Assembly (NCBI GenBank): GCA_004366385.1
Contig: SIRU01000058.1
Span: 1 to 64,000, forward strand
Length of the DNA: 64,000 nt
Direction of reading: 5' to 3'
From: Actinomycetota bacterium
GTDB taxonomy: Bacteria > Actinomycetota > Thermoleophilia > Gaiellales > Gaiellaceae
A program made the position numbers and the translations under genes. Shown piece after piece: positions 8,294 to 29,286 of this stretch. A model generated the notes under the pieces. The model did not search any database, was not told the origin of the DNA, and saw only the letters and a list, made by a program, of their open reading frames with translations. The first letter of the stretch is position 1. Every line of letters begins with the position of its first letter.

Positions 8294-8303
8294 ACGGTAC
8301 CGT
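8294..8303. promoter_or_regulatory. palindrome ACGGTACCGT giving TACCGT -10-like boxes on both strands
   Basis: Plus-strand TACCGT 8298-8303 lies 7 nt before rlmN GTG8311. Minus-strand TACCGT 8299-8294 lies 7 nt before ltaE GTG8286. The whole intergenic region is 24 bp. Confidence 0.45.
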
Positions 8304-10222: not shown

Positions 10223-11722
10223 TCAGCCGACGAGCGCCGGGTCGTCGTCGAACGAGTATCGCACGACCGGCTGCTTCGCGGCCCGCACCTCGTCGAGCCG
10301 GCGCACGGGCCGGCCGTGCGGCGCCTCGTGCAGCACGTCGGGTGACTCCGCCGCCTCGCGGGCGATCGCGCGCATCGCGTCGACGAACTCGTCGAGCCGC
10401 TCCTTCGGCTCCGTCTCGGTCGGCTCGATCATCAGCGCCTCGGGCACTACGAGCGGGAAGTAGATCGTCGGCGGGTGGATCCCGTAGTCCATGAGCCGCT
10501 TCGCGACGTCGAGCGCCGTGACGCCGTGCTCGCGCTTCAGCCCGCGTGCGGAGAGCACGAACTCGTGCATGCAGTGCCGGTCGTACGGGAGGTCGTACAC
10601 GTCCTTCAGGCGCGCGAGGACGTAGTTGGCGTTCAGCACCGCGGTCTCGGACATCTCGCGGAGCGCCGGGCCGTACGCGCGCATGTACGCGTACGAGCGC
10701 ACGAAGACGCCGAACGGCCCGGCGAAGCCGCGAACGCGGCCGATCGTCTTCGGGTGGTCGGAGTCGAGGCGGAACGCGTCGCCGTCGCGGACCACGCGGG
10801 GCACCGGGAGGAACGGCTCGATCGTGTCGCGCACCGCCACCGGCCCGCCGCCGGGCCCGCCGCCGCCGTGCGGCTGCGAGAAGGTCTTGTGCAGGTTGTA
10901 GTGGACGATGTCGAAGCCCATGTCGCCGGGCCGCGAGCGGCCGACGACGGCGTTCAGGTTCGCGCCGTCGTAGTAGAGGAGCGCGCCGGCGTCGTGGAAG
11001 ATCCGTGCGACCTCCTCGATCCCCTCGTCGAAGAGCCCGAGCGTCGAGGGGTTCGTGAGCATGAGGCCGGCCGTGCGCTCGTCGACCTTGCCGCGCAGGT
11101 CGTCGAGGTCGAGGTTCCCGCGCGCGTCCGTCTCGACCTTCTCCAGCTTGTACCCGGCCATCGTCACGCTGGCGGGGTTCGTGCCGTGCGCGGTGTCGGC
11201 GGTGATGATCGTGTCCCGCTCCTCCCCGCGGTCGGCGAAGTACGCGCGCATGAGCATGAGGCCGGTGAGCTCGCCCTGCGACCCCGCGGCCGGCTGCAGC
11301 GTCACCGCGGGCAGCCCGGCGATCTCGGCGAGGATCTCCTGGAGTCGCCACATGAGCTCGAGCGCGCCCTGCGCGGCCTCGTCCTCCTGGTGCGGGTGCA
11401 GGTCGCGGAAGCCGGGGAGTGAGGCGAGTCGCTCGTGGACGCGCGGGTTGTGCTTCATGGTGCAGGAGCCGAGCGGGTAGAAGCCCGTGTCGACGCCGAA
11501 GGTGCGGTCGGCGAGCGCCGTGAAGTGGCGGACGAGCTCGGGCTCCGAGAGCTCGGGGAGACGCGGCGGCCGCTTGCGGCGCAGGCCGTCGGGGAGCTCG
11601 GGCACGGGGAGATCGGGCCGCGGCGGCCGCCCCGCCCGGCGACCGGAGCGCGAGCGCTCGAAGATCAGCGGCGCCGGCGGCCAGGCGCGCCCCGGCTCGT
11701 GGAACGGCAGCTCGGCGCTCAT
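10223..11722 (-). CDS. gcvPB: glycine dehydrogenase (aminomethyl-transferring) subunit 2
   Basis: 499 aa. FYPLGSCTMKHNP and the rest are typical of the P-protein beta subunit. GGAGG lies 8 nt before ATG11722. Confidence 0.93.
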   Translation of the reverse strand: MSAELPFHEPGRAWPPAPLIFERSRSGRRAGRPPRPDLPVPELPDGLRRKRPPRLPELSEPELVRHFTALADRTFGVDTGFYPLGSCTMKHNPRVHERLASLPGFRDLHPHQEDEAAQGALELMWRLQEILAEIAGLPAVTLQPAAGSQGELTGLMLMRAYFADRGEERDTIITADTAHGTNPASVTMAGYKLEKVETDARGNLDLDDLRGKVDERTAGLMLTNPSTLGLFDEGIEEVARIFHDAGALLYYDGANLNAVVGRSRPGDMGFDIVHYNLHKTFSQPHGGGGPGGGPVAVRDTIEPFLPVPRVVRDGDAFRLDSDHPKTIGRVRGFAGPFGVFVRSYAYMRAYGPALREMSETAVLNANYVLARLKDVYDLPYDRHCMHEFVLSARGLKREHGVTALDVAKRLMDYGIHPPTIYFPLVVPEALMIEPTETEPKERLDEFVDAMRAIAREAAESPDVLHEAPHGRPVRRLDEVRAAKQPVVRYSFDDDPALVG

Positions 11723-11894
11723 GACCGCCCCTCCGTTGCACTCGCTCCCCCATCCACAGAAACCGTCGCGCTATCGGCGGAGAAATGTGACCCACGCGTG
11801 ACGACTTCGCCGCTAGGCTCGAAAGCGGGGGCAGGGCGCGAGAGCGCCCCCGGGGGGAGGAAACGGAGGGAGTGGCGACGCCCGAGCGGGCTCC

Positions 11895-13226
11895 TCACGA
11901 GCACACCTCCTCGAGCACCTCCGCGAGGCGGTCGACGTCCTCGACCGTCCGCCTCTCCGTCACGGAGACGAGCAGGACGTCGTCCATCCCCTGGTAGTCG
12001 CGGCCGAGCGCGTAGCCGGGATGCACGCCGCGCTCGCGCGCGCGGCGGACGACCTCGCGCGCCGGCATCGGCGTCCGGAACGCGACCTCCTTGAACGCGG
12101 GCGCGTCGAACGCGGGCTCGAGCGGGACCCGCTCGTGCGCGTAGGCCGCGAGCGCGAGGCAGCTCTCCCCCACCTCGCGCAGCCCGGCCGGACCGAGCCA
12201 CGACAGCGTCGCGAGCCCGGCGAGGCCGAGCAGCGTCTGGTTGGTCGTGATGTTCGAGGTCGCCTTCTCGCGGCGGATGTGCTGCTCGCGCGTCTGGAGC
12301 GTGAGTACGAACGCACGGCGGTCGTCCGCGTCGAGGGTCTCGCCGACGATGCGGCCGGGCATGCGGCGGATGAAGTCGGAGCGCGCGGCGAGGAAACCGT
12401 AGTGCGGCCCCCCGTACGACGGCCAGTTCCCCGCCGCCTGGCCCTCGCCGATCGCGATCGACGCCCCGTACGCACCCGGCGCCTCGAGGACGCCGAGCGA
12501 CATCGGGTCGACGTGCGCGATCGCGAGCGCGCCGGCCTCGGTCGCCGCCTCGGCGAGCTCCGGTGCAGGCTCGAGGCAGCCGAGGAAGCTCGGCTGCTGG
12601 AAGAGCACGGCCGCCGCGTCCTGCGCGGCCGCCGCGACGCGGTCCGGGTCGGTCGTGCCGCCGTCGTGCGGCACCTCCACGACCTCGAGCCCGAAGCCGC
12701 GCGCGTACGTCTTCACGACCTGGCGCACCTGCGGGCTCACGGTCTCCGCAAGGACGACGCGCGTGCGATCGGGCCGCGCGTGCTTCGCCATGAACGTCGC
12801 GTCCGCGGCCACGGTGCAGCCGTCGTAGCCCGACGCGTTGGACACGTCCATCCCGGTCAGCTCGCAGATCACGGTCTGGTACTCGAAGATCGCCTGGAGC
12901 ACGCCCTGGCTCATCTCCGGCTGGTACGGCGTGTACGCGGTGAGGAACTCGCCGCGCGAGAGCACGACGTCGACGACTGCCGGGACGTAGTGGTCGTAGA
13001 CGCCCGCACCGAGAAAGGAGAGCTCCGCGCCCGTGTGGACGTTGCGCGCCGCCAACTCCTCGACGTGACGCGCCAGCTCGGCCTCGCCGAGCGCAGGCGG
13101 CACGTCGAGCTCGCGGCCGAGGCGGACGCCCGGCGGCACCTGCTCGAAGAGCTCGTCGACCGACGAGACGCCGATCGCCTCGAGCATCGCCTCCCGGTCG
13201 GCGTCGGTGATCGAGAGGTAGCTCAC
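11895..13226 (-). CDS. gcvPA: glycine dehydrogenase (aminomethyl-transferring) subunit 1
   Basis: 443 aa from GTG13226, which forms a GTGA overlap with the gcvH stop. TAYTPYQPEMSQG motif. Confidence 0.93.
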   Translation of the reverse strand: MSYLSITDADREAMLEAIGVSSVDELFEQVPPGVRLGRELDVPPALGEAELARHVEELAARNVHTGAELSFLGAGVYDHYVPAVVDVVLSRGEFLTAYTPYQPEMSQGVLQAIFEYQTVICELTGMDVSNASGYDGCTVAADATFMAKHARPDRTRVVLAETVSPQVRQVVKTYARGFGLEVVEVPHDGGTTDPDRVAAAAQDAAAVLFQQPSFLGCLEPAPELAEAATEAGALAIAHVDPMSLGVLEAPGAYGASIAIGEGQAAGNWPSYGGPHYGFLAARSDFIRRMPGRIVGETLDADDRRAFVLTLQTREQHIRREKATSNITTNQTLLGLAGLATLSWLGPAGLREVGESCLALAAYAHERVPLEPAFDAPAFKEVAFRTPMPAREVVRRARERGVHPGYALGRDYQGMDDVLLVSVTERRTVEDVDRLAEVLEEVCS

Positions 13227-13618
13227 TGCTCCGCGACGTGCGCCTTGTACGCCTCGGCGTCCATGAGCGCGTCGACCTCGACCGCGTCCGACATGCGAAT
13301 CCGGATCAGCCAGCCGTCGCCGTACGGATCCTCGTTCACGATCTCGGGCTCCTCGACCGCGCGCGCGTTCACCTCGAGCACCTCGCCGGAGAGCGGCGCG
13401 ACGATGTCGGACACGGCCTTCACGGACTCGACCTCGCCGTACGACGCGTCTTTCGAGATCGAGGAGCCCACCTCGGGCGCCTCGTAGTGCACGAGCTCGC
13501 CGAGCGCGTCCTGCGCGAACCAGGTGACGCCCAGCGTGGCCTCGTCCCCGTCGATGCGGGCCCAGTCGTGCTCGGGGTGGTACTTGAGGTCGTCGGGGTA
13601 GCTCTCGGCGGCTGCCAC
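13223..13618 (-). CDS. gcvH: glycine cleavage system H protein
   Basis: 131 aa. Lipoyl-lysine motif GEVESVKAVSD. The start abuts the gcvT stop (TGAGTG). Confidence 0.95.
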   Translation of the reverse strand: MAAAESYPDDLKYHPEHDWARIDGDEATLGVTWFAQDALGELVHYEAPEVGSSISKDASYGEVESVKAVSDIVAPLSGEVLEVNARAVEEPEIVNEDPYGDGWLIRIRMSDAVEVDALMDAEAYKAHVAEQ

Positions 13619-14674
13619 TCACTGCTCCTTCCGGTAGATCGGCTTCGTCACGACCCGCGCGCGCCGCGGCCTGCCGCGGACGTCGATCACGAGCTCGGTG
13701 TCGGGGGCGGCGCTCCCGGCCGGCACGTAGCCCAGGCCGATGCCGCGGTCGAGCATCGGAGAGTGCGTCCCGGACGTCACCTCGCCGCCGCCCTCGATCT
13801 GCATGCCCTGGCGCGGAACCGCTCTCTCCTCCATCACGAAGGGGACGAGGCGGCGCGCAGGCCCCTGCTCCTTGATCCGGCGGAGCGCCTGCGCGCCGGT
13901 GAAGTCGGTGTCGAGCGCGCAGGCCCAGCCGAGGCCGGCGGAGATCGCGTCCGTCTCGGGCGTGATGTCGTTCCCGTGCAGCGGGTAGCAGACCTCGAGG
14001 CGGAGCGTGTCGCGCGCGCCGAGACCGCACGGGACCGCGCCGCGCGCGAGGACGGCGTCCCACAGCGCCTCGGCGTCCTCGGCGGCGCAGCAGAGCTCGA
14101 CGCCCTGCTCGCCCGTGTAGCCCGTGCGCGAGACCATCACCTCGATCCCGTCCAGCTCCCCCAGCTCGTGCGTGAACGCGGGCTTGTCCTCGAGGCCGAG
14201 CCGCTCGAACGCGCGCGGCCCCTGGACCGCGACGAGCCCGTACTCGTCGGACGCGTCACGCACCTCGCACCCGCGCGGCTCGCGCTCCTTCAGCCACTCG
14301 TACACGGGGGCGCGATTGGACGCGTTGCAGACGACGAGGTACGCGCCGTGGCCGAGGCGGTAGACGATGACGTCGTCCACGATCCCGCCCAGCTCGTTCG
14401 TCAGCAGCGTGTACTGCGCGTCGCCGTCGGAGAGCTTGTCGAGGTCGTTGGAGAGCATCTCCTGGAGGAACGCGTGCGCGGTCGGGCCGTCCACGTGGAT
14501 CTCGCCCATGTGCGACACGTCGAACGCGCCGCAGTCCGTTCGGACGGCTCGATGCTCCTCGATCACGCCCGCGTACTGGACGGGCATCTCCCAGCCGGCG
14601 AAGGGCACCATCCGCGCCCCGAGCGCGACGTGGCGCGCATACAGAGGCGTGCGCGAGAGCGACGTGGCCTCCAC
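13619..14674 (-). CDS. gcvT: aminomethyltransferase (glycine cleavage T protein)
   Basis: 351 aa. RTPLYARHVALGARMVPFAGWEMPVQY N-terminus. Confidence 0.95.
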   Translation of the reverse strand: MEATSLSRTPLYARHVALGARMVPFAGWEMPVQYAGVIEEHRAVRTDCGAFDVSHMGEIHVDGPTAHAFLQEMLSNDLDKLSDGDAQYTLLTNELGGIVDDVIVYRLGHGAYLVVCNASNRAPVYEWLKEREPRGCEVRDASDEYGLVAVQGPRAFERLGLEDKPAFTHELGELDGIEVMVSRTGYTGEQGVELCCAAEDAEALWDAVLARGAVPCGLGARDTLRLEVCYPLHGNDITPETDAISAGLGWACALDTDFTGAQALRRIKEQGPARRLVPFVMEERAVPRQGMQIEGGGEVTSGTHSPMLDRGIGLGYVPAGSAAPDTELVIDVRGRPRRARVVTKPIYRKEQ

Positions 14675-16765: not shown

Positions 16766-17656
16766 CTACGTCTCGAGCGGGGGGAGCTCCATGCCGCCGA
16801 CGAGCACGACCTCGCGCTCCAGCGTGACGCCGAACCGCTCACGCGCGCGCCGCCGCGCCTCGACCATGAGCGCGAGGCAGTCCTCGCTCGTCGCCCCGTC
16901 CGCGTTCTCGATGAAGTTCGCGTGCTTCGGCGAGATCATCGCGCCGCCGCTGCGGTGGCCCTTGAGCCCGCACTCCTCGAGCATCCTCCCCGCCCCCAGC
17001 TCGCCCGGCGGGTTCTTGAAGACGCTTCCGAAGGTGCGCTTGTTCGTCGGCTGCGTGGCCTTCCTCTGCGCGATGAGCTCGGCCACTGTCGCCTTGATCG
17101 CCTCCGGCGAGCTCGCCTGGAGGCGGTACTCGACCCGAGCCACGACCTGCCCCGGCGCCAGCCCCGAGTGGCGGTACGAGAGCCCGAGCTCGCCCGCGTC
17201 GAGCCAGCCCGCGCCGTCCGCGGTGACGACGAGCGCGCGGGTGAGAATCTGCTGCCAGTCGCGCCCGTACGCGCCCGCGTTCATCTTCACGCCGCCGCCG
17301 GCAGTCCCGGGGATCGCGCACGCGAACTCGAAGCCGCCGAGGCCCGCAGCGCGGGCGCGGTGCAGGCAGACGGCGTTCGTCGCGCCGCCGCCCGCGCGCA
17401 GCGTCTCGCCCTCGATCTCCACTTCCGCGAGCTCGCCTTCGAGCTTGAGCACGAGCGCGTCGACGCCCTCGTCTGCGGCGAGCAGGTTCGAGCCGAGCCC
17501 GACGACGACGGCCTCGAGCCCCTCACCGGCGGCGTAGCGTAGGGCGTCCGCGAGCTCCTTCTCGGTGGCCGGGCGGGCGAACGCGCGCGCCGGCCCGCCG
17601 GTGCCGATCGTCGTCAGCCGCGAGAGCGGAAAGCCGTGCTCGATCGCCACCGTCAC
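16766..17656 (-). CDS. murB: UDP-N-acetylenolpyruvoylglucosamine reductase
   Basis: 296 aa from GTG17656, which forms a GTGA overlap with the murC stop. LSRLTTIGTGGPA, GTAGGGVKMNAGAYG, FKNPPG motifs. Confidence 0.93.
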   Translation of the reverse strand: MTVAIEHGFPLSRLTTIGTGGPARAFARPATEKELADALRYAAGEGLEAVVVGLGSNLLAADEGVDALVLKLEGELAEVEIEGETLRAGGGATNAVCLHRARAAGLGGFEFACAIPGTAGGGVKMNAGAYGRDWQQILTRALVVTADGAGWLDAGELGLSYRHSGLAPGQVVARVEYRLQASSPEAIKATVAELIAQRKATQPTNKRTFGSVFKNPPGELGAGRMLEECGLKGHRSGGAMISPKHANFIENADGATSEDCLALMVEARRRARERFGVTLEREVVLVGGMELPPLET

Positions 17657-18834
17657 TCGGGCAGCCCCTCGGCGATCGCGCGGGCGACGCGCCACGGCTC
17701 ACCCACGCCCAGCGTGACGACAACGTCGCCCGGCCGCGCCCAGGCGAGCGCGAGCCGCGCCGCGTCGTCGAGGGTCGGCGTCCACCCGCGGCGGACGCCC
17801 CGCGGGACGCTGTCGAGGACGAGCCTGCCGCCGACGCCGGGGCGCGGGGCGTCGCGGCCGTCGACGATCTCCGTCACGATTGCCGCGTCCGCGATCCCGA
17901 GCGCCTCGCCGAGCTCCCGGTGGAGATGTCGCGTGCGCTCGTGGACGTGCGGCAGGTAGACGGCGACGAGGCTTCGCTGCGTCCGCTCGCGCGCCGTCCG
18001 GAGAGCGGCTGCGATCTCGGTCGGGTTGTGGCCGTAGTCGTCGTACACAGCGACGCCGCCGCGCTCCCCGACGAGCTGGAAGCGGCGGTCGACGCCTGCG
18101 AACGACCCGAGCGCGCGCTCGGCGCCCGCGCGCGCGACCCCGGCGAGCTCGAGCGCGGCGAGCGCCGCGGCGGCGTTCCAGCGGTTGTGCTCGCCGGGAA
18201 CGGCGAGCTCGAACGAGACGGGCTCGAGCTCCCAGCCGCGGACGACCTGCGGCACGCCTGCCGTCCACTCGTCGAAGAACGCGCGCAGCTCGGCGTCCGA
18301 GCCGAAGGTCGCGTGATGGTCGAGCTCGACGTTCGTGACCACGGCGATCTCGGGCCGGAGGAGCGCGATCGAGCGGTCGGACTCGTCGCCCTCGACCACG
18401 AGCCAGCCCGAGCCGGTTCCCGCGTTGCCCCCGAGCTGCGGGACGACGCCGCCGACGATCCAGGCCGGGTCGTGGCCGAGCTCGCGAAGCGCGAACGCGG
18501 CCATCGCAGCCGTCGTCGTCTTGCCGTGCGCGCCGCCGACCACGATCGCGCGCCGCAGGGACACGAGCTCGGCCAGGAGCTCGGCACGCGGCCGGCCCTG
18601 GACGCGGCCGGCGTGGGCCGTCGAGACGACGACCTCGAAGCCCGGCGGCGGCTGCGGCTCGCCGCCGACGTCGATCTCGATCCCCTCGAGCGTCTCCATG
18701 AAGATCGTCTCGCGCACGTCCCAGCCGCGCGCCTCGGCCCCCCAGCCGCGGACGACATTCGCGTACGCCGAGAGGCCGGCGCCGCCGATGCCGACGAAGT
18801 AGAAGCGCCGGCCCGCCAGCGGCTGGTCGCTCAC
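17653..18834 (-). CDS. murC: UDP-N-acetylmuramate--L-alanine ligase
   Basis: 393 aa from GTG18834, which forms a GTGA overlap with the thrB stop. FVGIGGAGLSAYA and GAHGKTTT P-loop. Confidence 0.93.
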   Translation of the reverse strand: MSDQPLAGRRFYFVGIGGAGLSAYANVVRGWGAEARGWDVRETIFMETLEGIEIDVGGEPQPPPGFEVVVSTAHAGRVQGRPRAELLAELVSLRRAIVVGGAHGKTTTAAMAAFALRELGHDPAWIVGGVVPQLGGNAGTGSGWLVVEGDESDRSIALLRPEIAVVTNVELDHHATFGSDAELRAFFDEWTAGVPQVVRGWELEPVSFELAVPGEHNRWNAAAALAALELAGVARAGAERALGSFAGVDRRFQLVGERGGVAVYDDYGHNPTEIAAALRTARERTQRSLVAVYLPHVHERTRHLHRELGEALGIADAAIVTEIVDGRDAPRPGVGGRLVLDSVPRGVRRGWTPTLDDAARLALAWARPGDVVVTLGVGEPWRVARAIAEGLPE

Positions 18835-19646
18835 GCGTGCGCTCCTCGCGGCGAGACGGCGAGGGGGAGGACGCGGTGGTCGGGGTAGCGCGCGGCGAGG
18901 GCCGCTGAGCAGGTGCTCGCGTCCTCGGCCCACACGACGACGGCCGGGCCGGAGCCCGAGAGCGTCGCTCCGCGCGCGCCGGCGGGCAGCGACTCCCGCA
19001 GCTCTCGCACGAGCGCGCTCCCGCGGTACGGCTCGTGGACGCGGTCGTCGAGCGCCGCCGCGAAGAGGTCGGCATCGCCGGCGACCGCGGCGGCGCCGAG
19101 CAGCGCGGCACGCGCGAGCGAGAACGCGGCGTCGCCGTGGGAGATCTCGGCAGGGAGCGCGTCCCGGGCCGCGTCGGTGGAGACGCGCGCGGGCGGGATC
19201 ACGGCGACCGGCTCGAGCGGAAGGGTGTCCGCGACGCGTGCGATCCGCCCGTCCCACGCGAGCGTCACGCCTCCGGCGAGCGCGGCCGCGAGGTTGTCCG
19301 CGTGCGGCTCCAGCGTGAGCCCGAGCGCGAGCAGCTCCTCGTCCGGCGCCTCGGGCGCGGCGGCACGGAGCCCGAGCGCGATCGCGGCGGCGCTCGAGCC
19401 GAGGCCGCTCTCGAGCGGGATGCGGTTCACGAAACGGAAGCGCTTGCCGGCCGGGTCGGCGAGGAGCGCGTACGCGCGCACGGCGAGGTTCGTCGCGTCC
19501 TCGGGCAGCTCGCCCGCGCCCTCGCCCTCGACGGCGACACCCTCGCCCTCGCTCACCTCCACCTCGTTCCAGAGGTCGAGCGCGACACCCGCGCAGTCGA
19601 AGCCCGGCCCGAGGTTCGCGGAGGTCGCCGGCGCGCGGGCGATCAC
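18831..19646 (-). CDS. thrB: homoserine kinase
   Basis: 271 aa from GTG19646, which forms a GTGA overlap with the thrC stop. APATSANLGPGFD and GHMP motif PLESGLGSSAAA. Confidence 0.92.
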   Translation of the reverse strand: MIARAPATSANLGPGFDCAGVALDLWNEVEVSEGEGVAVEGEGAGELPEDATNLAVRAYALLADPAGKRFRFVNRIPLESGLGSSAAAIALGLRAAAPEAPDEELLALGLTLEPHADNLAAALAGGVTLAWDGRIARVADTLPLEPVAVIPPARVSTDAARDALPAEISHGDAAFSLARAALLGAAAVAGDADLFAAALDDRVHEPYRGSALVRELRESLPAGARGATLSGSGPAVVVWAEDASTCSAALAARYPDHRVLPLAVSPRGAHA

Positions 19647-20605
19647 CGCGCGGCCTCGGCGATCGCGTCCGGGTCGGGATCGACCGTGCCGACGGGCGGC
19701 GCGTGCCGGTCGGCGGCGACGACGTCCTTCAGCCCGTGGCCGGTCAGCGTGACGACGACGCGCCCGACGGCGGCGCCGCGCGCCACGGCGGCGAGCCCGG
19801 CGGCCGACGACGGCTCGCAGAAGACGCCTTCGAGCTCGGCCAGCGAGCGCCACGCGGCGACGATCTCCTCGTCGCTGACGGTCACGACACGGGCCCCGGA
19901 GGACGCGACCTTCGGCGCGTGCACCGGCTCGGCGATGCGGATCGCGGACGCGAGCGTGCGAGCGCGGTCGGCGGCCTCGACCGAGACGATCGGGGTGTCG
20001 AGCCCTAGCTCGGCGAGCGCCGCGGCGTACGCGGTCGTGTTGCCGCCCCCGCCGTACGGGATCGCGAACGCGTCCGGCGCACCGCCGAGCTCCTCCACGA
20101 TCTCGTGCACCGCGGTCTTCTGCCCGGCGACGCGGTACGGGTTGAGCGAGTTGACGAGGACGTGCGTCCCGCGCTCCGCGAGCACGCGGGCCGCGCCGAG
20201 CGCCTCGTCGAAGCTCCCACGCACCTCGAGCACGCGCGCGCCGAGCATCCGCGTCTGCGCGAGCTTCGCGGCCGCGACCGCGCCCTCCGGCACCAGCACG
20301 ACCGCCCGCAGCCCGGCCCGCGCCGCGTAGGCGGCGGCGGACGCAGCGGTGTTCCCGGTCGACGCGCAGATGACCGCCTCCGCGCCCTCCTCGACCGCCT
20401 TCGACACCGCCACCGTCATCCCGCGGTCCTTGTAGCTCCCCGTCGGGTTCGCGCCCTCCCACTTCAGCCACAGCTCGACGCCGTGGCGCTCGGACAGCCT
20501 CGGCGCCGGGAGTAACGGCGTCGAGCCCTCGCCGAGCGAGACGACGGGTGTCGCGTCGCCCACCGGCAGCAGCGACCGGTACCGCTCGATCAGCGCGAGG
20601 CTCAC
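19643..20605 (-). CDS. thrC: threonine synthase
   Basis: 320 aa. PLP-lysine motif NPTGSYKDRG. GTG20605 overlaps the hom stop (GTGA). Confidence 0.93.
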   Translation of the reverse strand: MSLALIERYRSLLPVGDATPVVSLGEGSTPLLPAPRLSERHGVELWLKWEGANPTGSYKDRGMTVAVSKAVEEGAEAVICASTGNTAASAAAYAARAGLRAVVLVPEGAVAAAKLAQTRMLGARVLEVRGSFDEALGAARVLAERGTHVLVNSLNPYRVAGQKTAVHEIVEELGGAPDAFAIPYGGGGNTTAYAAALAELGLDTPIVSVEAADRARTLASAIRIAEPVHAPKVASSGARVVTVSDEEIVAAWRSLAELEGVFCEPSSAAGLAAVARGAAVGRVVVTLTGHGLKDVVAADRHAPPVGTVDPDPDAIAEAAR

Positions 20606-21912
20606 GTCCAGCCGAGCTCCTCGACGCCGCGTGAGGAGACGACCGGCAACGCGCTCGCGTCGCCGCGGGACTCGGGGAGCGCGCGGATTGCCCGCAGCGC
20701 CGCCTCCACGCGCCCGGCCGGCGCCTCGTGCGTCACCACGTGGAGCACGGCGTGGCCGTCACCCGGCTGCTGCACGAGCCTCGCCACGGAGACGCCTTCG
20801 CTCGCGAGCTCCTGGGCGAGCCGCGCGAGCACGCCGGCGCGGTCCTCGACCTCGAGCCGGAGGTAGTACGGCGACGGCAGCTCGCCGTGCGGGAGCGCGC
20901 CGAGCGAGCGCCAGACGGGGTCGTCGCGGAGAAAGCCCGCCTCCGACGCGCCGAGCACCGACACGAGGTCGGCCACGATCGCCGACGCCGTCTCCGTCCC
21001 GCCCGCGCCCGGCCCTTCGAGCGTGAGCTCGCGGATCGCGTCGCCCTGGAGCATGACCGCGTTGAACGCGCCCTCGATCGACGCGAGCGGATGATGGGCG
21101 TCCACGAAGGCCGGCCCGACCCGCACGCCGACCCTCTCCCCAACGAGCACCGCCTCGCCGACGAGCTTCACGCGCATCTCGAGCGCGCGCGCGGCGGCCA
21201 CGTGCTCGTCGCGCAGTGCGTCGATCCCGGCGACCTCGACGCCTTCGAGCGCGACGCGAGACCCGAACGCGACCGTCGCGAGGATCGCCATCTTCGCTGC
21301 CGCGTCGAGCCCCGAGACATCCTCGGTTGGATCGGCCTCCGCGTACCCGAGCCGCTGCGCCTCCGCAAGCGCGTCCGCGTACGTGCTTCCTGCCTCCATC
21401 TCGCCGAGGACGAAGTTCGTCGTCCCGTTCACGATCCCGAGCACGCGGTGGACGTTCGTGACCACCAGCGACTCGCGCAGCAGCTTGATCACGGGGATGG
21501 CAGCGCAGACGGAGGCCTCGAAGCGGAGCTGCGCGCCGCCCTCGGCCGCGGCCTCGAAGAGCTCGGGGCCGTGGCGGGCGACGAGCTGCTTGTTCGCGGT
21601 CACGACCGGGATGCCGCGACGCAGGAGCTCGGCGACGTACTCGCCCGTCGGCTCCACGCCGCCCATGACCTCGGCGACGAGCGCCACTCCTCCGTCGTCG
21701 ACGATGCGGCGGAAGTCGCCGGTGAGAACGCCGTGCGCCGGCGCGTGCTCGCGTTCTCTCCCCGGGTCGCGGACGAGCGCGCGGACGACGCGCAGCCGAT
21801 GGCCGGTGGCGCGCGCGATGTCCTCGGCGCCGTCCTCGAGCAGCCGGTGCACCGCGGATCCCACCGTGCCGTAGCCGAGGAGCGCGACCGGGACGTCGAC
21901 CGGCGCGCTCAC
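20602..21912 (-). CDS. hom: homoserine dehydrogenase (with C-terminal ACT domain)
   Basis: 436 aa from GTG21912, which forms a GTGA overlap with the murG stop. LLGYGTVG NAD motif, VVTANKQL, GIVNGTTNF. ACT-like tail YYLRLEVEDRAGVLA. Confidence 0.93.
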   Translation of the reverse strand: MSAPVDVPVALLGYGTVGSAVHRLLEDGAEDIARATGHRLRVVRALVRDPGREREHAPAHGVLTGDFRRIVDDGGVALVAEVMGGVEPTGEYVAELLRRGIPVVTANKQLVARHGPELFEAAAEGGAQLRFEASVCAAIPVIKLLRESLVVTNVHRVLGIVNGTTNFVLGEMEAGSTYADALAEAQRLGYAEADPTEDVSGLDAAAKMAILATVAFGSRVALEGVEVAGIDALRDEHVAAARALEMRVKLVGEAVLVGERVGVRVGPAFVDAHHPLASIEGAFNAVMLQGDAIRELTLEGPGAGGTETASAIVADLVSVLGASEAGFLRDDPVWRSLGALPHGELPSPYYLRLEVEDRAGVLARLAQELASEGVSVARLVQQPGDGHAVLHVVTHEAPAGRVEAALRAIRALPESRGDASALPVVSSRGVEELGWT

Positions 21913-22982
21913 CCGCGGCCTGCCAGCGCGAGCAGCTCGTCGGCGATCTCGTCCGCGGCCTCCGGCTTCGCGAGCGCGCGCATCGCCTCGCCCATCCCGC
22001 GCAGGCGCTCCGGGTCGGCGAGCAGCTCGTCGACGAGAGCGGGGACGCGCTCCAGCTCCTCCTGCCGCATAGTGACCGCGCCACCCCCGTCGGCGAAGTA
22101 GCGCGCGTTCAGCGCCTGGTGGTCGGCGGTCGCGTACGGGTACGGGACGAGGATCGCGGGCGTCCCGGTGGCGGCGAGCTCCCAGACCGTGCCGCCGGCG
22201 CGCGAGATGGCGAGATCGGTGGCGGCGAGCGCGTCGCCGAAGCTCTCCGCGACCGCGACGAGGACGTAGTCGGGCCTGGTCACGCGCGGGCGAAGCTCGG
22301 TGAAGTCCCGCTCGCCGGCAATGTGGAGGACCGTCGGCCCGCTCTCGCCCCACGTGTCGACCGCGAAGCGGTTGAGGGCCTGCGCTCCCGCGAGGCCGCC
22401 GAAGACGCCGACCACCGGCCCCTCCGCGGGCAGCCCGAGGCGCGCTCGGGCTTCCTCCCGGTCGCCGCCGAGATGCGCCTGCGGCACCGGCCGCCCGACG
22501 ACGCGGTACTTCGCGCCGTCCCGCCCGGGGATGCCGTACGCGAGGAAGACGCGGCGCGCGAAGGGCGCGGCGAGGCGGTTCGCGAGCCCGAGGTGCGCGT
22601 CCGCCTCCGTCAGCGCGGCCGGGATCCCGCGCAGCCGGGCCGCGAGCACCATCGGGCCGGCGACGTAGCCGCCGCCGCCGAGGACGACGTCCGGCCGCCG
22701 CCGCGAGAGGATCCGCGCGCACGCGAACGGCGCGCGCACCGCTCGCGCGAGCGCACGCACGAGCGCCACCCCCGGCCGGCGCGGGAAGCCCGAGATCGGG
22801 AACGTGTCCAGCTCGTAGCCGGCCTCAGGTACCAGCTGCGACTCGACGCGATCTGGCGACCCGGCCCACGTCACGCTGACTCCGCGCTCGCGCAGCGCCT
22901 CCGCGACTGCGAGCGCCGGCCGCACGTGCCCGGCCGTTCCCCCGGCGGCGATCAGGCACGCGAGCTTCGACGACCCGTTCAT
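21909..22982 (-). CDS. murG: UDP-N-acetylglucosamine--lipid I GlcNAc transferase
   Basis: 357 aa. N-terminal G-loop AAGGTAGHVRPALA. GT28 C-terminal half. Confidence 0.93.
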   Translation of the reverse strand: MNGSSKLACLIAAGGTAGHVRPALAVAEALRERGVSVTWAGSPDRVESQLVPEAGYELDTFPISGFPRRPGVALVRALARAVRAPFACARILSRRRPDVVLGGGGYVAGPMVLAARLRGIPAALTEADAHLGLANRLAAPFARRVFLAYGIPGRDGAKYRVVGRPVPQAHLGGDREEARARLGLPAEGPVVGVFGGLAGAQALNRFAVDTWGESGPTVLHIAGERDFTELRPRVTRPDYVLVAVAESFGDALAATDLAISRAGGTVWELAATGTPAILVPYPYATADHQALNARYFADGGGAVTMRQEELERVPALVDELLADPERLRGMGEAMRALAKPEAADEIADELLALAGRG

Positions 22983-24063
22983 TGACGGCGATGTTAAGGA
23001 GAATCCCCACGCCCGCGAGCAGGACGACGAGGCTCGACCCGCCGTAGGAGACGAACGGCAGCGGGATCCCGGTCAACGGCGCGAGCCCGAGCACGGCCGC
23101 GAGGTTGATCGCCGCCTGGCCGCACACGAGCGCCGTGACCCCGGCCGCGAGCAGCTTCCCGAACGGGTCCTTGCAGCGGAGCGCGATCCGGAAGCCGACG
23201 ACCGTGAACGCCGCGAACGCGCCGATGACGAGCACGGAGCCGACGAAGCCGAGCTCCTCCCCGACGACCGCGAAGATCATGTCGTTGTGCGCCTCGGGGA
23301 GGTAGAGCACCTTCTGGACGCTCTCCCCCAGCCCCTCGCCGGTGATCCCGCCCGACCCGATCCCGATCAGCGCCTGCACGATCTGGAAGCCGGAGTCCTC
23401 CGCGTCGCTCCACGGGTCGAGGAAGCTGAACACGCGCTCGCGCCGGTACGGCTCGACCCAGATCGCAAGCAGCCCGACCCCCACGGCGAGCAGCGACGCG
23501 CCGGCGAGCGGGAGGAACGGGACGCCCGCGACCAGGAAGATCGCGAGCATCGTCCCGCAGAGCGTGACCGTCGTCCCCAGGTCGGGCTCGAGCAGGATGA
23601 GCGCGCAGAAGATCGCGGTGAGGATGCCCAGCGGGCGCGCGAGCTCGCCGAGCGTCCGCGGCGGGCGGCGGCGCGCGAGCCAGACGGCCGCGAAGAGGCA
23701 GAGCGAGAGCTTGGCGAGCTCGGACGGCTGAAAGCTGGCGGGACCGAGGATGAACCAGCGGCGCGCCCCGTTGATCTCGGGTCCGACGACGAGCACCGCG
23801 GCGCAGAGGGCGAGCGAGCCGAGCAGGAGCGGTGCGGCCAGGTAGCGGAGGCGGTGGTAGTCGAAGCGCGCGACGAGCAGCATGAGGGCGACGCCGAGGA
23901 GCGCGTACACGCTCTGGCGCTTGAGGTAGCTCATCGGGTCGCCGTTCCCGAGCGCGGCGGACGCCGACGTCGCGCTGTACACCATCACGAGGCCGAACGC
24001 CACCAGCGCGAGCGTGACGAAGGCGAGGACCCGCTGGTCGACGCGGCCGTCGGCGGCTCTCAT
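22825..24063 (-). CDS. ftsW: SEDS-family peptidoglycan polymerase/lipid II flippase FtsW
   Basis: 412 aa. Polytopic. PEAHNDMIF and PLPFVSYGGSS motifs. ATG24063 overlaps the murD stop (ATGA). The first in-frame stop is at 22825, so a 52-aa Arg-rich tail overlaps murG by 158 nt. Confidence 0.9.
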   Translation of the reverse strand: MRAADGRVDQRVLAFVTLALVAFGLVMVYSATSASAALGNGDPMSYLKRQSVYALLGVALMLLVARFDYHRLRYLAAPLLLGSLALCAAVLVVGPEINGARRWFILGPASFQPSELAKLSLCLFAAVWLARRRPPRTLGELARPLGILTAIFCALILLEPDLGTTVTLCGTMLAIFLVAGVPFLPLAGASLLAVGVGLLAIWVEPYRRERVFSFLDPWSDAEDSGFQIVQALIGIGSGGITGEGLGESVQKVLYLPEAHNDMIFAVVGEELGFVGSVLVIGAFAAFTVVGFRIALRCKDPFGKLLAAGVTALVCGQAAINLAAVLGLAPLTGIPLPFVSYGGSSLVVLLAGVGILLNIAVNERVVEARVPDRRRGNGRARAAGARSRGGAARARSQRDVGRVARSRRVAAGT

Positions 24064-25334
24064 GCGAGCGCCTCCACGAGGCGGCGGAACTCGTCCCCGC
24101 GGTCCTCGAAGTCGCGGAACTGGTCGAAGGACGCGCACGCGGGCGAGAGCAGGACGACGTCGCCGGGGCCGGCAGCAGCATGGGCGGCGCCCAGCGCGGT
24201 CTCGAGGTCGCCGCCGTGGGTGAAGGGGACGTCCGCTCGGTCGAGCGCGGCCGCGATCTCCGGCGCGGCGCGGCCGATCAGATACGCGCGGTCGCCGGGC
24301 TCGAAGGCGGCGGCGAGCGGGTTGTAGCTCTCGTTCTTCCCGAGCCCGCCGAGGACGACGTGCAGCCGCGCCGGGCGCAGGGCGGCGAGCGCGCGGAGGG
24401 CGGCGGCCACGTTCGTCGCCTTCGAGTCGTTCACGTAGCGGACGCCGTGGAGCTCGCGCACGGGCTCGACGCGATGCGGGACACCTGGGAACGTGCGCAG
24501 CGCCTCCGCGATCGCGTCGTCTCGGAGGCCCGCCGCCCGGGCCGCCGCGGTAGCGGCCGCCGCGTTCTCCCGGTTGTGCTCGCCCGGGATCAGCGGCTCG
24601 GCGGGCAGTGGGTCGTCGCCGGAGAACTCGACGCGCGCGGCGCCGCCCGGGATCGCGCCGAAGCCGCGCGGGACGATCGCGACGTCGTCCTCGGTCTGCT
24701 GCTCGAAGAGCCGGAGCTTCGTGTCCGCATACCACTCGAACGTCGGGTAGAGGTCGAGGTGGTCCGGCGCGAGATTGAGGAGGACGGCGATGCGCGGCCG
24801 GAACGTGTCCACGTCGTCGAGCTGCTGGACGCCGACCTCGCACACGACCCAGGCGTCGTCGGCGACCGTGCCTGCGAGGGACGTGACCGCGCGGCCGATG
24901 TTCCCGGCGACCTCCGCCGGCACGCGCGCGGCCCGGAACATCTCCCCGAGAAGCGCGGTCGTCGTCGTCTTCCCGTTCGACCCGGTGATCCCGACGAACG
25001 GGTTCGGGAGGAGCCGCGCGCCGAGCTCGAGCTCGCTCCAGACCGGGATCGCGCGCGCGTTCGCGGCCGCGACCAGCGGCGTCGAGCCAGGCACGCCCGG
25101 GCTCTTCACGACGAGATCAGTCCCCTGTAGCAGCACGTCCAGCGCGTCCTCCTCGCCTCCGAGGCGGACTTCGACGCCGAGGTCGCGGAGCCTCCCCGCG
25201 TCGAGCTCCTCGTTCACGTCGAACGCGACGACACGCGCGCCGCGCGCGACGAGCGCTTCGGACGCCGCGAGCCCGGAGCGCGCGAGCCCGATCACGAGCA
25301 CACGCCGGCCCGAGAGCTCCGGCCCGCCGGTCAT
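24060..25334 (-). CDS. murD: UDP-N-acetylmuramoylalanine--D-glutamate ligase
   Basis: 424 aa from ATG25334, which forms an ATGA overlap with the mraY stop. GITGSNGKTTTT P-loop. Confidence 0.93.
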   Translation of the reverse strand: MTGGPELSGRRVLVIGLARSGLAASEALVARGARVVAFDVNEELDAGRLRDLGVEVRLGGEEDALDVLLQGTDLVVKSPGVPGSTPLVAAANARAIPVWSELELGARLLPNPFVGITGSNGKTTTTALLGEMFRAARVPAEVAGNIGRAVTSLAGTVADDAWVVCEVGVQQLDDVDTFRPRIAVLLNLAPDHLDLYPTFEWYADTKLRLFEQQTEDDVAIVPRGFGAIPGGAARVEFSGDDPLPAEPLIPGEHNRENAAAATAAARAAGLRDDAIAEALRTFPGVPHRVEPVRELHGVRYVNDSKATNVAAALRALAALRPARLHVVLGGLGKNESYNPLAAAFEPGDRAYLIGRAAPEIAAALDRADVPFTHGGDLETALGAAHAAAGPGDVVLLSPACASFDQFRDFEDRGDEFRRLVEALA

Positions 25335-26347
25335 GGCCCGATGATCTGGAGGAAGTCGCGGTAGAAGAGCGCGAAGCCGGACGCGCACAGGATCGCGCAG
25401 ACGATCCAGAAGCGGACCATGATCTTCGTCTCCGACCACGCCTTCATCTCGAAGTGGTGGTGGATCGGGGCCATGAGGAACACGCGCTTCCCCGTCCGCT
25501 TGAAGCCGACGACCTGGATGATCAGCGAGAGCACCTCGATCACGAAGATGCCGCCGATCAGGAGCAGCAGGAGCTCGGTGCGCGTCACGATCGCGAAGCC
25601 GGCGATCGCGCCCCCGAGCGCCATCGAGCCGGTGTCGCCCATGAAGACCTCCGCGGGGTGGGCGTTGTACCAGAGGAACCCGATCGTGCCTCCGATGAGC
25701 GCCGCAGCCAGCGTCGTGAGGTCGAGGTAGACGTCGCTGCGCTCTCCCGGCGCCCCCGAGCGGAGCCAGGCGATCCCCGCGATCGCGAGGAACGTCAGCA
25801 GCATGATCGTGGCCGTTCCGGCCGCGAGGCCGTCGATCCCGTCCGTCAGGTTCGCGCCGTTCACCGTGCCGGCGATGACGAGGAAGAGGAAGGGGTAGAA
25901 GAGGTAGCCGAGGTCGATGTTCCAGCCGGCGAGCGGCACGTAGATCTCGGTCGAGAACGTGCTGGTCTGGTGCAGGAGGATCGCCGCGCCGACGGTGACG
26001 GCAGCGAGGAGGAGCATCTTCCAGCGCCCGGGGAGCCCGAGCGACCGGCCCTGGCGGAGCTTGAGGTAGTCGTCCGTGAACCCGATCGCGGCGCAGCCGA
26101 GCACGATGAAGAGGACGGTGAGCCCCTCGGCGGTGTACTGCGAGAGCACGAGGAAGGGGAGCGCCGAGCAGGTGACGATCAGCAGCCCGCCCATCGTGGG
26201 CGTTCCCTGCTTCACGACGTGCGCGGCCGGGCCCTCGGCGCGGATCTGCTGCCCGAGGTTGCGCGCGCGGAGCGTCTCGATGAACCTCGGCCCGAGGACG
26301 ACGCCGGCGATCATCGCCAGCAGGCCGGCGATCAGGACTGGGACCAT
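25331..26347 (-). CDS. mraY: phospho-N-acetylmuramoyl-pentapeptide transferase
   Basis: 338 aa. Polytopic. GTPTMGG, DDYLKL and NLTDGIDGLA motifs. 16-nt overlap with the murF 3' end. Confidence 0.95.
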   Translation of the reverse strand: MVPVLIAGLLAMIAGVVLGPRFIETLRARNLGQQIRAEGPAAHVVKQGTPTMGGLLIVTCSALPFLVLSQYTAEGLTVLFIVLGCAAIGFTDDYLKLRQGRSLGLPGRWKMLLLAAVTVGAAILLHQTSTFSTEIYVPLAGWNIDLGYLFYPFLFLVIAGTVNGANLTDGIDGLAAGTATIMLLTFLAIAGIAWLRSGAPGERSDVYLDLTTLAAALIGGTIGFLWYNAHPAEVFMGDTGSMALGGAIAGFAIVTRTELLLLLIGGIFVIEVLSLIIQVVGFKRTGKRVFLMAPIHHHFEMKAWSETKIMVRFWIVCAILCASGFALFYRDFLQIIGP

Positions 26348-27663
26348 GCTCCGGCGATGTTCGCGATCTCGTCGGCGATGCCTTCGAGCCCGACCGCTCT
26401 CGAGGCCTTGACCAGGACGGCGTCACCGGGCCGGAGGTGGGCGCGGGCGGCCTCGACGGCGGCCTCCGCGTCCGGCGCCCAGACGGTCGGTGCGTACAGG
26501 CGCGCCGGCTCCCCGACGCCGACGACCTCGATGCCGCGCGTGCGCGCGAGCTCGCCGATCTCCTCGTGGAAGCGCGGAGCTGCGTCTCCGAGCTCGGCCA
26601 TCTCGCCGAGGATCGCGACCTTGCGCCGGCCCCCGCCGGCACGCTCGGCGAGGTGCTCGAGTGCGGCGCGCATCGAGTCCGGGTTCGCGTTGTAGGCGTC
26701 GTTCACGACGAAGCCGCCGCCGGGAAGCTCGAGCTCCTCACCGCGCCAGGGGCTGAGGCAGATGGCCGCGGCACCCTCGTGCGCACGGTCGAGCGGGAGG
26801 CCGAGCGCGTCGTAGGCGTGGAGCGCGGCGAGCGCGTTCACGGCGAGGTGGCGCTGGGTGAACGGGAGCTCGAGCGTCAGCTCGCGGCCGTCGATCCGGA
26901 AGTGGCCCGTGCGCCCGTTCAGGTGCGCGTCGGCGGGGTCGAAGCGGCGGAAGACCACGTCGTCGCGCGCGAGGTGCGGCTCGAGCGCAGGCGCATGCGC
27001 CGGGACGACGGCGACACCGCCCGGCGGGAGCGCCGCGATCGCCTCGGCGTTCGCGGCGGCGACGTTCTCGACCGTGCCGAGGAGCTCGAGGTGCTCAGGG
27101 CCGATGTGCGAGACGAGGACGAGGTCGGGCCGGGCGATCGCGCAGAGCTCGGCGATCTCGCCGAGCCCGCGCATCCCCATCTCGGTGACCAGGATCTCCG
27201 TGGCCGGCTCGAGGCGGCAGACGGTGAGCGGGAGCCCGAGCTCGTTGTTCAGGCTCTTGTCGGCGGCGATCGTGTGCGCGTGCGGAGCGCAGAGCGCGGC
27301 GAGGATGTCCTTCGTCGTGGTCTTGCCGGCGGAGCCGACCACCGCGACGACGCGCGCGCTCGACTTCGAGCGGACGAGGAGGGCGAGGGCGGCGAGCGCG
27401 GCCTCCTGGTCGTCGGGGACGAGCGTGGCGGCGCCGCGCGCGCGGGCGGCGCCGACGTAGCGGGTGCCGGTGTTCAGCGCGACGAACAGGTCTCCGGGAC
27501 CGGCGTCCCGCGAGTCCGCGACGATCCGGGAGACGTCCCGTCCGGGCTCGTCCGCCTCGAGCCGGCCCAGCCCGAGCGCCTCGACCTCGGCCCAGCGGAG
27601 CACGATCACCCGCTGCACCCCACAGCAGCAGCCGGCGGCCACGTTGCGGCCGACCTGTGCCAA
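26332..27663 (-). CDS. murF: UDP-N-acetylmuramoyl-tripeptide--D-alanyl-D-alanine ligase
   Basis: GSAGKTTTKD P-loop and DAYNANP motif. Start uncertain: TTG27663 is the longest, but GTG27618, GTG27609 or GTG27603 fit the usual MurF N-terminus better. Confidence 0.9.
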   Translation of the reverse strand: MAQVGRNVAAGCCCGVQRVIVLRWAEVEALGLGRLEADEPGRDVSRIVADSRDAGPGDLFVALNTGTRYVGAARARGAATLVPDDQEAALAALALLVRSKSSARVVAVVGSAGKTTTKDILAALCAPHAHTIAADKSLNNELGLPLTVCRLEPATEILVTEMGMRGLGEIAELCAIARPDLVLVSHIGPEHLELLGTVENVAAANAEAIAALPPGGVAVVPAHAPALEPHLARDDVVFRRFDPADAHLNGRTGHFRIDGRELTLELPFTQRHLAVNALAALHAYDALGLPLDRAHEGAAAICLSPWRGEELELPGGGFVVNDAYNANPDSMRAALEHLAERAGGGRRKVAILGEMAELGDAAPRFHEEIGELARTRGIEVVGVGEPARLYAPTVWAPDAEAAVEAARAHLRPGDAVLVKASRAVGLEGIADEIANIAGAWSQS

Positions 27664-27777: not shown

Positions 27778-29286
27778 TCAGCGGGACGCGCCCAGCGCCG
27801 CCAGCGCCTCGCGAGCGACGACGCGGTCGTCGAAGGGAAGGACGACGCCGCCGGCCTCTTGCCCTTGCTCGTGCCCCTTCCCCGCGATCAGGACGACGTC
27901 CCCGGGCTCGGCGAGCCCGATCGCCCGCTCGATCGCCGAGCGCCGGTCGGGGTCGATCTCGACGTCCAACCCTGCCCCCTGGAGGACGTCCTGGATGATC
28001 GCGAGCGGATCCTCGGAGCGCGGGTTGTCGGAGGTCACGATGGCGACGTCCGCGAGCTGGACTGCGATCCGCCCCATCAGCGGCCGCTTGCCACGGTCGC
28101 GGTCCCCGCCCGCGCCGAAGACGACGAGCACGCGCCCCTCCGCGAGGTCACGCGCTGCCCGCAGCGCGGTCTCGAGAGAGTCGGGCGTGTGCGAATAGTC
28201 CACGATCACCGCGAACGGCTGCCCGGCGTCGACCGGCTCGAACCGCCCCGGCACCGAGGCCACCGACGCCACCCCCTCGACGATCGCCTCCTCCGGAAGG
28301 TCGATCAGCAGCGCAGCCGCCACCGCCCCGAGCGCGTTCTCGACGTTGAACCGCCCGCGGAGCGGCGTCTCCAGCTCGAGCCCCGCGGCCCGGAACCGGC
28401 TCCCGTCGGGCCGCACCTCGAGCCCTTCCGCCCATACCTCCGCCCCGGCCTCGAGCCCGAACGTGATGAGCGGCGCGCGGTGCGACTCGGCGAGCTCGGC
28501 CGCCAGCCGGCGTCCCCACTCGTCCCCGATGCACACCACCGCCGGCGGCGGCTGCGCCCCCGAGAAGAGCCGCCGCTTCGCCTGGAAGTACGCCTCCATC
28601 GATCCGTGCAGGTCGAGGTGGTCCTGGCTGAGGTTCGTGAACACGAGCGCGGCGAAGCGCACCCGCTCGAGCCGCCCGAGCGCCGACCCGTGCGACGAGG
28701 CCTCCACCGCCGCGCTGCGATCCCCCGCGTCGAGCATCGCGCGGAAGAGCCGCTGGAGCTCGATCGCCTCCGGCGTCGTGAACGGCGCCGGCCGCCGCTC
28801 GCCGCCGACGATCCACTCCACGGTGCCGACCAGCCCCGGCGCGCGTCCGGCGGCCTGCAGCATCGCGTGCAGCAGGTACGTCGTCGTCGTCTTGCCATTC
28901 GTCCCGGTGACGCCCACGACCTCGAGCTCCTTCGTCGGCTCCCCGAAGAAGGCGTCCGCCGCGACCGCCATCGCCGAACGCGCGTCGGGCACCACGAGCT
29001 GCGGCACGTCTGCCTCCACGGGACGCTCGACCACGAGCGCGGCCGCTCCCCGCCTCACCGCAGCCCCTGCCAGCTCGTGCCCGTCCACCCGCGACCCGGG
29101 CACGCAGAAGAAGAGGGCGCCGTCGCCCACCGCGCGCGTGTCGTGTGCGAGGTCGCCGATCTCGACCGGCCGGGCTCCGATCACCTCGCTCGGGGCGAGC
29201 GCCCGGATCAGGGCCTCGAGCTCCACGGGCGGAACGGTAACGAAACGGCCTGCGCGCTCAGCCCGCAGCGGGCCGGCGCGGAGCAT
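27778..29286 (-). CDS. murE: UDP-N-acetylmuramoyl-L-alanyl-D-glutamate--2,6-diaminopimelate ligase
   Basis: 502 aa. GVTGTNGKTTTT P-loop. DNPR motif (SDNPRSEDP) typical of meso-DAP-adding MurE. ATG29286 overlaps the ftsI 3' end by 29 nt (alternative GTG29226). Confidence 0.93.
   Translation of the reverse strand: MLRAGPLRAERAGRFVTVPPVELEALIRALAPSEVIGARPVEIGDLAHDTRAVGDGALFFCVPGSRVDGHELAGAAVRRGAAALVVERPVEADVPQLVVPDARSAMAVAADAFFGEPTKELEVVGVTGTNGKTTTTYLLHAMLQAAGRAPGLVGTVEWIVGGERRPAPFTTPEAIELQRLFRAMLDAGDRSAAVEASSHGSALGRLERVRFAALVFTNLSQDHLDLHGSMEAYFQAKRRLFSGAQPPPAVVCIGDEWGRRLAAELAESHRAPLITFGLEAGAEVWAEGLEVRPDGSRFRAAGLELETPLRGRFNVENALGAVAAALLIDLPEEAIVEGVASVASVPGRFEPVDAGQPFAVIVDYSHTPDSLETALRAARDLAEGRVLVVFGAGGDRDRGKRPLMGRIAVQLADVAIVTSDNPRSEDPLAIIQDVLQGAGLDVEIDPDRRSAIERAIGLAEPGDVVLIAGKGHEQGQEAGGVVLPFDDRVVAREALAALGASR

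Follow-up and report, generated by a model that had tools for sequence, protein, structure and literature searches.

The window analyzed here, a 64,000-nucleotide stretch of an Actinomycetota bacterium of the family Gaiellaceae (GenBank assembly GCA_004366385.1, contig SIRU01000058.1, positions 1–64,000), carries a division and cell wall (dcw) gene cluster in which the threonine-biosynthetic genes hom, thrC, and thrB stand between murG and murC. This insert is a real, conserved, local gene-order variant that is confined to a small subclade of the Gaiellaceae. Our overall interpretation, to which we assign a probability of about 0.72, is that the family's own hom-thrC-thrB cassette was relocated into the dcw cluster in this lineage, and that its genes are still ordinary threonine enzymes.

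The dcw cluster of the window occupies the minus strand between positions 14722 and 32658, and its genes were identified by profile matches to Pfam and NCBIfam. Their order is mraZ-rsmH-ftsL-ftsI-murE-murF-mraY-murD-ftsW-murG-[hom-thrC-thrB]-murC-murB-ftsQ-ftsZ. A preliminary description, made from the letters of the window alone, had placed hom-thrC-thrB inside an otherwise canonical dcw run, and this was borne out: every expected gene was matched, in that order, and all were co-linear and co-oriented. The adjacency of murG and murC is broken by the 3.08 kb of the three inserted genes, the G+C content of which is the same as that of the neighboring dcw genes (71–77% across the window). Homoserine dehydrogenase is encoded by hom (20602–21912, 436 aa), which has NAD-binding, catalytic, and C-terminal ACT domains (PF03447, PF00742, and PF01842) and scored 442 bits against NF004976 (cut-off 205). 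Threonine synthase is encoded by thrC (19643–20605, 320 aa; PF00291), with 213.8 bits against TIGR00260 (cut-off 167.1), and homoserine kinase by thrB (18831–19646, 271 aa), which has the N- and C-terminal GHMP kinase domains. The score of ThrB against TIGR00191 was 165.5 bits, slightly under the cut-off of 168.25, and the protein is 70% identical to ThrB of Gaiella occulta. Hom, ThrC, and ThrB look like intact, ordinary enzymes. On the upstream side, murG (21909–22982, 357 aa) matched PF03033 and PF04101 and scored 244.5 bits against TIGR01133 (cut-off 250.25); the glycine-rich motif AAGGTAGH at the N-terminus of MurG follows immediately after the ATG at 22982. On the downstream side, murC (17653–18834, 393 aa) matched PF08245 and PF02875, and TIGR01082 was its top match by a wide margin (260 bits, cut-off 335). 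The N-terminus of MurC, VSDQPLAGRRFYF, agrees with those of the outgroup MurC proteins.

The cassette is joined to its neighbors by overlapping stop and start codons. The preliminary description had listed five 4-nt GTGA overlaps from murG/hom to murC/murB, and we read each of these tetranucleotides on the minus strand at exactly the positions claimed. Two of them form the new junctions, namely murG/hom (21909–21912), where the murG stop overlaps the hom start, and thrB/murC (18831–18834), which has GGAG 7 nt upstream of the GTG. Two others, hom/thrC (20602–20605) and thrC/thrB (19643–19646), were inherited from the ancestral cassette described below, and murC/murB (17653–17656) is an ordinary dcw junction. 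A gene caller based on positional G+C content, which is blind to overlaps, chose identical boundaries at all five. Overlaps of 4 nt are common in this genome, being found in about 10 gene pairs of the window that share a strand, including murD/ftsW, and an RTGA sequence (R, A or G) at a stop codon is therefore unremarkable by itself. The overlaps are nevertheless credible as true starts because alignments with orthologs begin at residues 1–5 at the overlap, because 4 of the 5 overlapping starts are preceded, at a distance of a few bases, by a Shine-Dalgarno (SD)-like GGAG or GAGG motif, and because ATG and GTG alternate at these positions in relatives. At the first new joint, the full-length C-terminus of MurG is followed by Hom from its first residues (VSAPVDVPVA; ancestral form, VASVDVPVA), and at the second, the C-terminus of ThrB is followed by MurC from residue 1 (VSDQPLAGRR... 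in the window vs. VTDQPLAGRR... in the outgroups). MurG and ThrB at their C-termini and Hom and MurC at their N-termini are thus complete in comparison with orthologs, from which we infer that the moved block begins precisely with the start codon of hom and ends with the stop codon of thrB.

The order murG-hom-thrC-thrB-murC was seen in eight assemblies besides the window, which derive from four different samples and two metagenome-assembled genomes (MAGs) and include both short-read and long-read assemblies. These are the two GTDB species-representative MAGs L001 and L002 (CAVXUY01 and CAWJBN01), a 60-kb contig from the Joint Genome Institute (JGI; P0002), three distinct long-read contigs from the ENA sample ERZ25039541 (L081, L085, and L169), a short-read contig from ERZ27251540 (L170), and a 2.4-kb JGI contig (L168). 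In the last of these, the 50 residues upstream of hom are the C-terminus of MurG, and the reading of this contig as an ilvC-hom contig was ruled out by the presence of this murG 3' end. Among the six carrier loci compared, the identity of Hom was 82–95%, indicating that the carriers are different organisms. The thrB/murC junction is RTGA in all 7 carrier loci that cover it (the window, L001, L002, L081, L085, L169, and L170), and either ATGA or GTGA occurs at the same junction positions in the six of these other than the window. The murG/hom junction is GTGA in L001, L002, and L085 and ATGA in L170; the forms GTGATGA in L081 and TGAtATG in L168 point to a small drift of this joint. The metagenomic origin and high G+C content of the sequence, together with frameshifts in some of the related long-read contigs, might raise the suspicion that assembly or binning had joined two loci chimerically. 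However, both junctions are common to nine independent assemblies from differing samples and technologies, and the junction sequences have diverged between carriers, in ATGA or GTGA as in Hom itself. Chimeric assembly is thus excluded as the cause of the gene order, its probability being negligible. As a further difference among carriers, MurG of L001 and L002 has an 18-residue C-terminal extension (e.g., ...SRSAKVSVEKASA; 11063–11116) that is absent from MurG of the window. As the extension runs up to the GTGA overlap that joins murG to hom, this joint has been remodeled within the carrier clade.

To place the insert phylogenetically, one genome per GTDB species was surveyed by a MurG search, which gave 80 Gaiellales loci with 67–83% MurG identity, and these loci were compared with the window proteins by tblastn. 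The insert was present in 2 of the 80 species genomes, L001 and L002, which are the two closest to the window. In the remaining 78, tblastn detected no insert between murG and murC or murB; murC directly followed murG wherever it was matched, three loci had no usable murC match, and one contig ended at murG. A comparison of dcw synteny across relatives had been proposed in the preliminary description, and it shows that the arrangement is not the norm of the clade: with only two such genomes, the insert is a trait of a small subclade and not of the family.

In six other Gaiellaceae contigs, the three genes are found in an ilv/leu cluster, and the ancestral context is leuB-ilvB-ilvN-ilvC-hom-thrC-thrB-rhodanese-ilvD-PALP-leuC-leuD. 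These contigs are those of G. occulta (L082, QQZY01000001), L084, L166, L167, L171, and P0134, and their arrangement indicates that the cassette moved into the dcw cluster. The ilv-linked cassette of G. occulta matches that of the window in gene content and order, in its internal 4-nt overlaps, and in the ACT domain of Hom. The neighbors differ: the cassette is flanked by ilvC and a rhodanese-domain gene in G. occulta and by murG and murC in the window. The 4-nt overlaps of hom/thrC, thrC/thrB, and also thrB/rhodanese already exist in G. occulta, and L166 has the GTGA stop context at hom/thrC. Between the window and G. occulta, protein identity was 77% for Hom, 73–75% for ThrC, and 70% for ThrB. 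The best 120 database matches of the window Hom were all 76–92% identical. Horizontal gene transfer from outside the Gaiellaceae was rejected, as Hom, ThrC, and ThrB are closest to Gaiellaceae orthologs. In a neighbor-joining (NJ) tree of Hom, the nine proteins verified in the dcw context formed one clade, and those with a verified or inferred ilv context all fell outside it. This dcw-type clade comprises about 40 of the top 120 Hom clusters and has three main subclades. The simplest reading of these sequence relationships, and of the G+C content that the insert has in common with its dcw neighbors, is that the dcw-located cassette has one origin and descends from the native one.

The rhodanese-domain gene lies between thrB and ilvD (11079–11792 in L082, 13210–13938 in L084, 14260–14958 in L166, and 12534–13235 in L171) and, in most ilv loci, shares a 4-nt overlap with ilvD; it would have stayed behind when the cassette moved. 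In two near outgroups, a conserved spacer of about 130 nt separates ilvC from hom (L084, 9873–10000; L166, 10988–11120). It contains one hairpin of the sequence CGGCCGC-GAAA-GCGGCCG and a second, GGATCGGC-GCA-GCCGATCC in one locus vs. GGATCCGC-GAA-GCGGATCC in the other, with a compensatory G-C/C-G swap. A search of Rfam gave no credible match in the spacer, and its sole match in the entire window was a tRNA. The spacer is absent in the dcw version and likewise in G. occulta and L167, where ilvC adjoins hom. It may be a leader or attenuator of hom-thrC-thrB; if it is regulatory, the move to the dcw cluster removed it.

We propose the following course of events for the relocation. In the ancestor of the small subclade, the block from the hom start to the thrB stop would have been placed at the murG/murC junction. 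This target is already an RTGA overlap in many relatives, for example in L010, L012, and L014, with candidate starts of this kind in L005, L015, L024, and L078, and both of the new joints are RTGA again. A segment bounded by RTGA that entered an RTGA junction would give the observed joints directly by microhomology; alternatively, spacers could have been trimmed after the insertion. The cassette would now most likely be part of a long mraZ-to-ftsZ message driven by the dcw promoters, as its overlaps suggest, and would most likely be translated by reinitiation at these overlaps, while the ACT domain of Hom probably provides the short-term control of flux. We assume that the move was neutral, and it was most likely either neutral or mildly beneficial. 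The insert may have been kept in place because imprecise excision would damage its essential neighbors.

Several observations weigh against this proposal. The carrier genomes were read at the dcw locus only, and they may hold a second copy at the ilv locus. The branch of dcw-type Hom is longish, with 75–82% identity to ilv-linked Gaiellaceae Hom, in comparison with 82–89% among the ilv-type proteins themselves, which could reflect accelerated evolution after the move, descent from an older paralogue, or transfer from a different lineage of Gaiellales. Internal promoters within coding sequences are common in the dcw clusters of model bacteria such as Escherichia coli and Bacillus subtilis. Furthermore, the carriers (the window, L001, L002, and L081, together with L169 and L170) and the insert-free L003 (CAWKLR01), L008 (CAWIZT01), and L022 (JALZOK01) form one clade in 188–199 of 200 NJ bootstraps, and NJ puts the three insert-free loci inside the carrier clade as the sister of L169 and L170 (175–197 of 200 bootstraps). 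If this nesting is right, it implies a secondary loss, and hence a second copy or a further move at some time. The shared derived sites for the three possible groupings number 4, 2, and 1, which is too few to decide among them. In the insert-free L003 and L022, the ancestral overlap of murG and murC is replaced by a spacer of about 40 nt with low G+C content (11078–11117), which contains the near-perfect palindrome CCAAGTAACAGaCTGTTACTTGG in L003 and an imperfect one in L022. This spacer may be an operator or a scar of cassette loss.

The same observations bear on the possibility that the cassette was duplicated rather than moved, so that the ilv-linked cassette is still present in the carriers beside the dcw copy, which would be an additional and perhaps specialized set of paralogues. 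None of the six ilv loci examined has an empty ilvC-rhodanese site, which also counts against a simple relocation. A scan of metagenome contigs with IlvC of L084 gave 80 loci that were uninformative on this point, being at most 73% identical, and the query patterns were universal IlvC motifs. Four IlvC lineages chosen from an IlvC tree as possible carriers (P0125, P0132, P0234, and P0134) were all of the ancestral type, with hom-thrC-thrB in place. The long branch of dcw-type Hom and the possible loss in L003, L008, and L022, which would need another copy, also fit a duplication, as does JGI sample 3300056388, which holds both a dcw-type contig (P0002) and an ilv-type contig (P0134), although these possibly belong to different organisms. 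In contrast, none of the ilv loci was assignable to a carrier genome, and the nine dcw-context Hom proteins are distributed over the main subclades of their clade, with no ilv-linked sister lineage among those sampled. The ratio of nonsynonymous to synonymous substitutions (dN/dS) between carriers was 0.07–0.22 for hom, thrC, and thrB and 0.12–0.23 for murC. Purifying selection acts as strongly on the moved genes as on murC, which points to retained function; a dN/dS as low as that of an essential gene would be unusual for a redundant copy. On balance, we regard a duplication as unlikely and favor relocation.

A further question is how the relocated cassette is expressed. The consensus scan revealed no promoter-like site, which is weak evidence since such a scan is uninformative at 73% G+C, and it gave 5 terminator-like sites, in comparison with 2.4 ± 1.5 expected; none of these was convincing, and their number is at chance level. 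The overlaps make it likely that the cassette is co-transcribed and translationally coupled with the dcw genes. The preliminary description had stated that there is no room for a promoter, which is too strong a claim since promoters can sit within coding sequence. The cassette could thus lie in the dcw cluster and still be transcribed alone from a promoter in the 3' end of murG, with no regulatory coupling; promoters of this type are known from dcw coding regions in E. coli and B. subtilis, and the consensus scan is unreliable for actinobacterial promoters. Nevertheless, the junctions have zero intergenic space, the overlapping stop and start codons and the upstream SD-like motifs are conserved, and the structured spacer of about 130 nt that precedes hom in the two near outgroups is missing here, all of which make a promoter of its own rather improbable.

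We also considered whether the arrangement is adaptive. Hom and the diaminopimelate (DAP) pathway draw on a common pool of aspartate semialdehyde, as established biochemistry, and the preliminary description had suggested that this intermediate is possibly partitioned between threonine and DAP during growth. On this reading, the dcw placement would fix the ratio of Hom expression to that of the DAP-consuming wall enzymes. In agreement with this idea, MurE was found to be of the DNPR (meso-DAP) type, as had been noted, with the motif at residues 420–423; the overlaps are conserved across the carrier clade; and hom, thrC, and thrB are under purifying selection. However, purifying selection is expected of any sole threonine pathway, wherever it is placed. 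The other 78 species genomes have the same dcw genes and no insert, close relatives share the MurE type, and one nested or sister lineage is without the insert, perhaps through loss. The arrangement arose recently and locally, by relocation out of the ilv/leu cluster, and the window contains no ask, asd, or dap genes. Since the enzymes of the DAP branch are outside the operon, membership in it cannot set the ratio of Hom to DapA. In other bacteria, threonine exerts feedback control on Hom through the ACT domain, and because Hom retains this domain here, flux control need not be transcriptional. The partitioning idea therefore has no support beyond adjacency, and we consider it very unlikely. 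We hold similarly strong doubts about a broader version, in which the threonine branch has been hard-wired into the growth-coupled dcw transcript with a fixed translational stoichiometry, so that the use of aspartate semialdehyde for threonine is coordinated with the demand of the wall for meso-DAP, and in which the gain, and perhaps the later loss in L003, L008, and L022, tracks ecological shifts. If true, this adaptive relocation would provide a natural case in which selection acts on which genes of different pathways share an operon. We found no evidence of new biochemistry or of a special function of the arrangement.

The dcw cluster is a textbook example of a gene order that resists change. 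In comparison with the canonical actinobacterial cluster, that of the window has the same genes, strand, and order, and mostly overlapping or very short junctions, without ftsA or ddl; what sets it apart is that murG and murC are separated by three genes of amino-acid biosynthesis, unrelated to the others. Sporulation genes occur in the dcw clusters of Bacillus. Extra genes have also been reported in the dcw clusters of Neisseriaceae (PMC9395523). Such cases demonstrate that individual lineages can accommodate additional genes in the cluster, and L055, with about 1.1 kb extra between murB and ftsQ, is another among the loci compared here. The insert of the window differs from these cases in being a complete, co-oriented housekeeping cassette with start/stop overlaps on both sides. 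The author of the preliminary description knew of no account of such an arrangement, and our search agrees: in the searchable literature, no paper pairs the dcw cluster with homoserine dehydrogenase, although the survey of Megrian et al. may mention such an arrangement, and neither searches on dcw gene order nor a broad study of that order (PMC8871954) revealed an insert of this kind. Our results suggest that the dcw cluster tolerates a foreign insert of 3 kb between two essential genes if polarity and coupling are preserved, and the carrier clade has retained the insert while diversifying. Sister lineages with the cassette at the ilv locus and at the dcw locus constitute a dated before/after pair for studying regulation after the relocation of an operon. 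In practical terms, the finding matters little unless threonine and cell-wall synthesis can be shown to be linked physiologically.

The remaining dcw genes of the window, all on the minus strand and identified by Pfam, are mraZ (32227–32658), rsmH (31302–32261), an open reading frame (ORF) with an FtsL domain that ends at 30943, ftsI (29258–30946), murE (27778–29226/29286), murF (26332–27618), mraY (25331–26347), murD (24060–25301), and ftsW (22825–24063) upstream of murG, and ftsQ (15912–16574/16733; POTRA_1) and ftsZ (14722–15765/15795; Tubulin and FtsZ_C) downstream. Between murC and ftsQ lies murB (16766–17656, 296 aa), which scored 280.9 bits against NF010480 (cut-off 259). The ORF at 22994–24181 was rejected as ftsW because it is in the wrong frame and has no Pfam match. 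The frame of ftsW is open for 158 nt beyond the murG start, which gives a 52-codon overlap of ftsW and murG (22825–22982, minus strand). In this region, the third-position G+C content fits the murG frame (0.87) and does not fit the ftsW frame (0.60), and an identical 158-nt overlap is present at 10001–10158 in L001, L002, and L003. At 393 aa, MurC is short, with only a partial match to Mur_ligase_M and no match to the N-terminal domain PF01225. MurC matches are of about the same length across related Gaiellales loci, so the short form looks family-wide and not like an effect of the insertion.

Additional features were noted around the cluster and in relatives. Directly after ftsZ, the window contains gcvT-gcvH-gcvPA-gcvPB (10223–14674, minus strand), an adjacency that is also found in insert-free relatives. 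About 2 kb past the gcv genes is a gene of the threonine aldolase family (7240–8295, minus strand; GntG-family pyridoxal phosphate (PLP)-dependent aldolase, 345.6 bits), so that genes for threonine synthesis, threonine-to-glycine conversion, and glycine cleavage all lie within 15 kb. In L055, a Thermoleophilia MAG, about 1.1–1.3 kb of extra sequence separates murB from ftsQ (13154–14422); it holds an opposite-strand ORF of 325 aa with no Pfam match and appears to be a further lineage-specific break in the dcw cluster. Farther along the window, the product of a plus-strand gene (55705–57714), 669 aa long, combines two WYL domains with a WCX domain and has no NCBIfam match, and several ORFs near it have no Pfam match (57908–59218 and 59870–60532).

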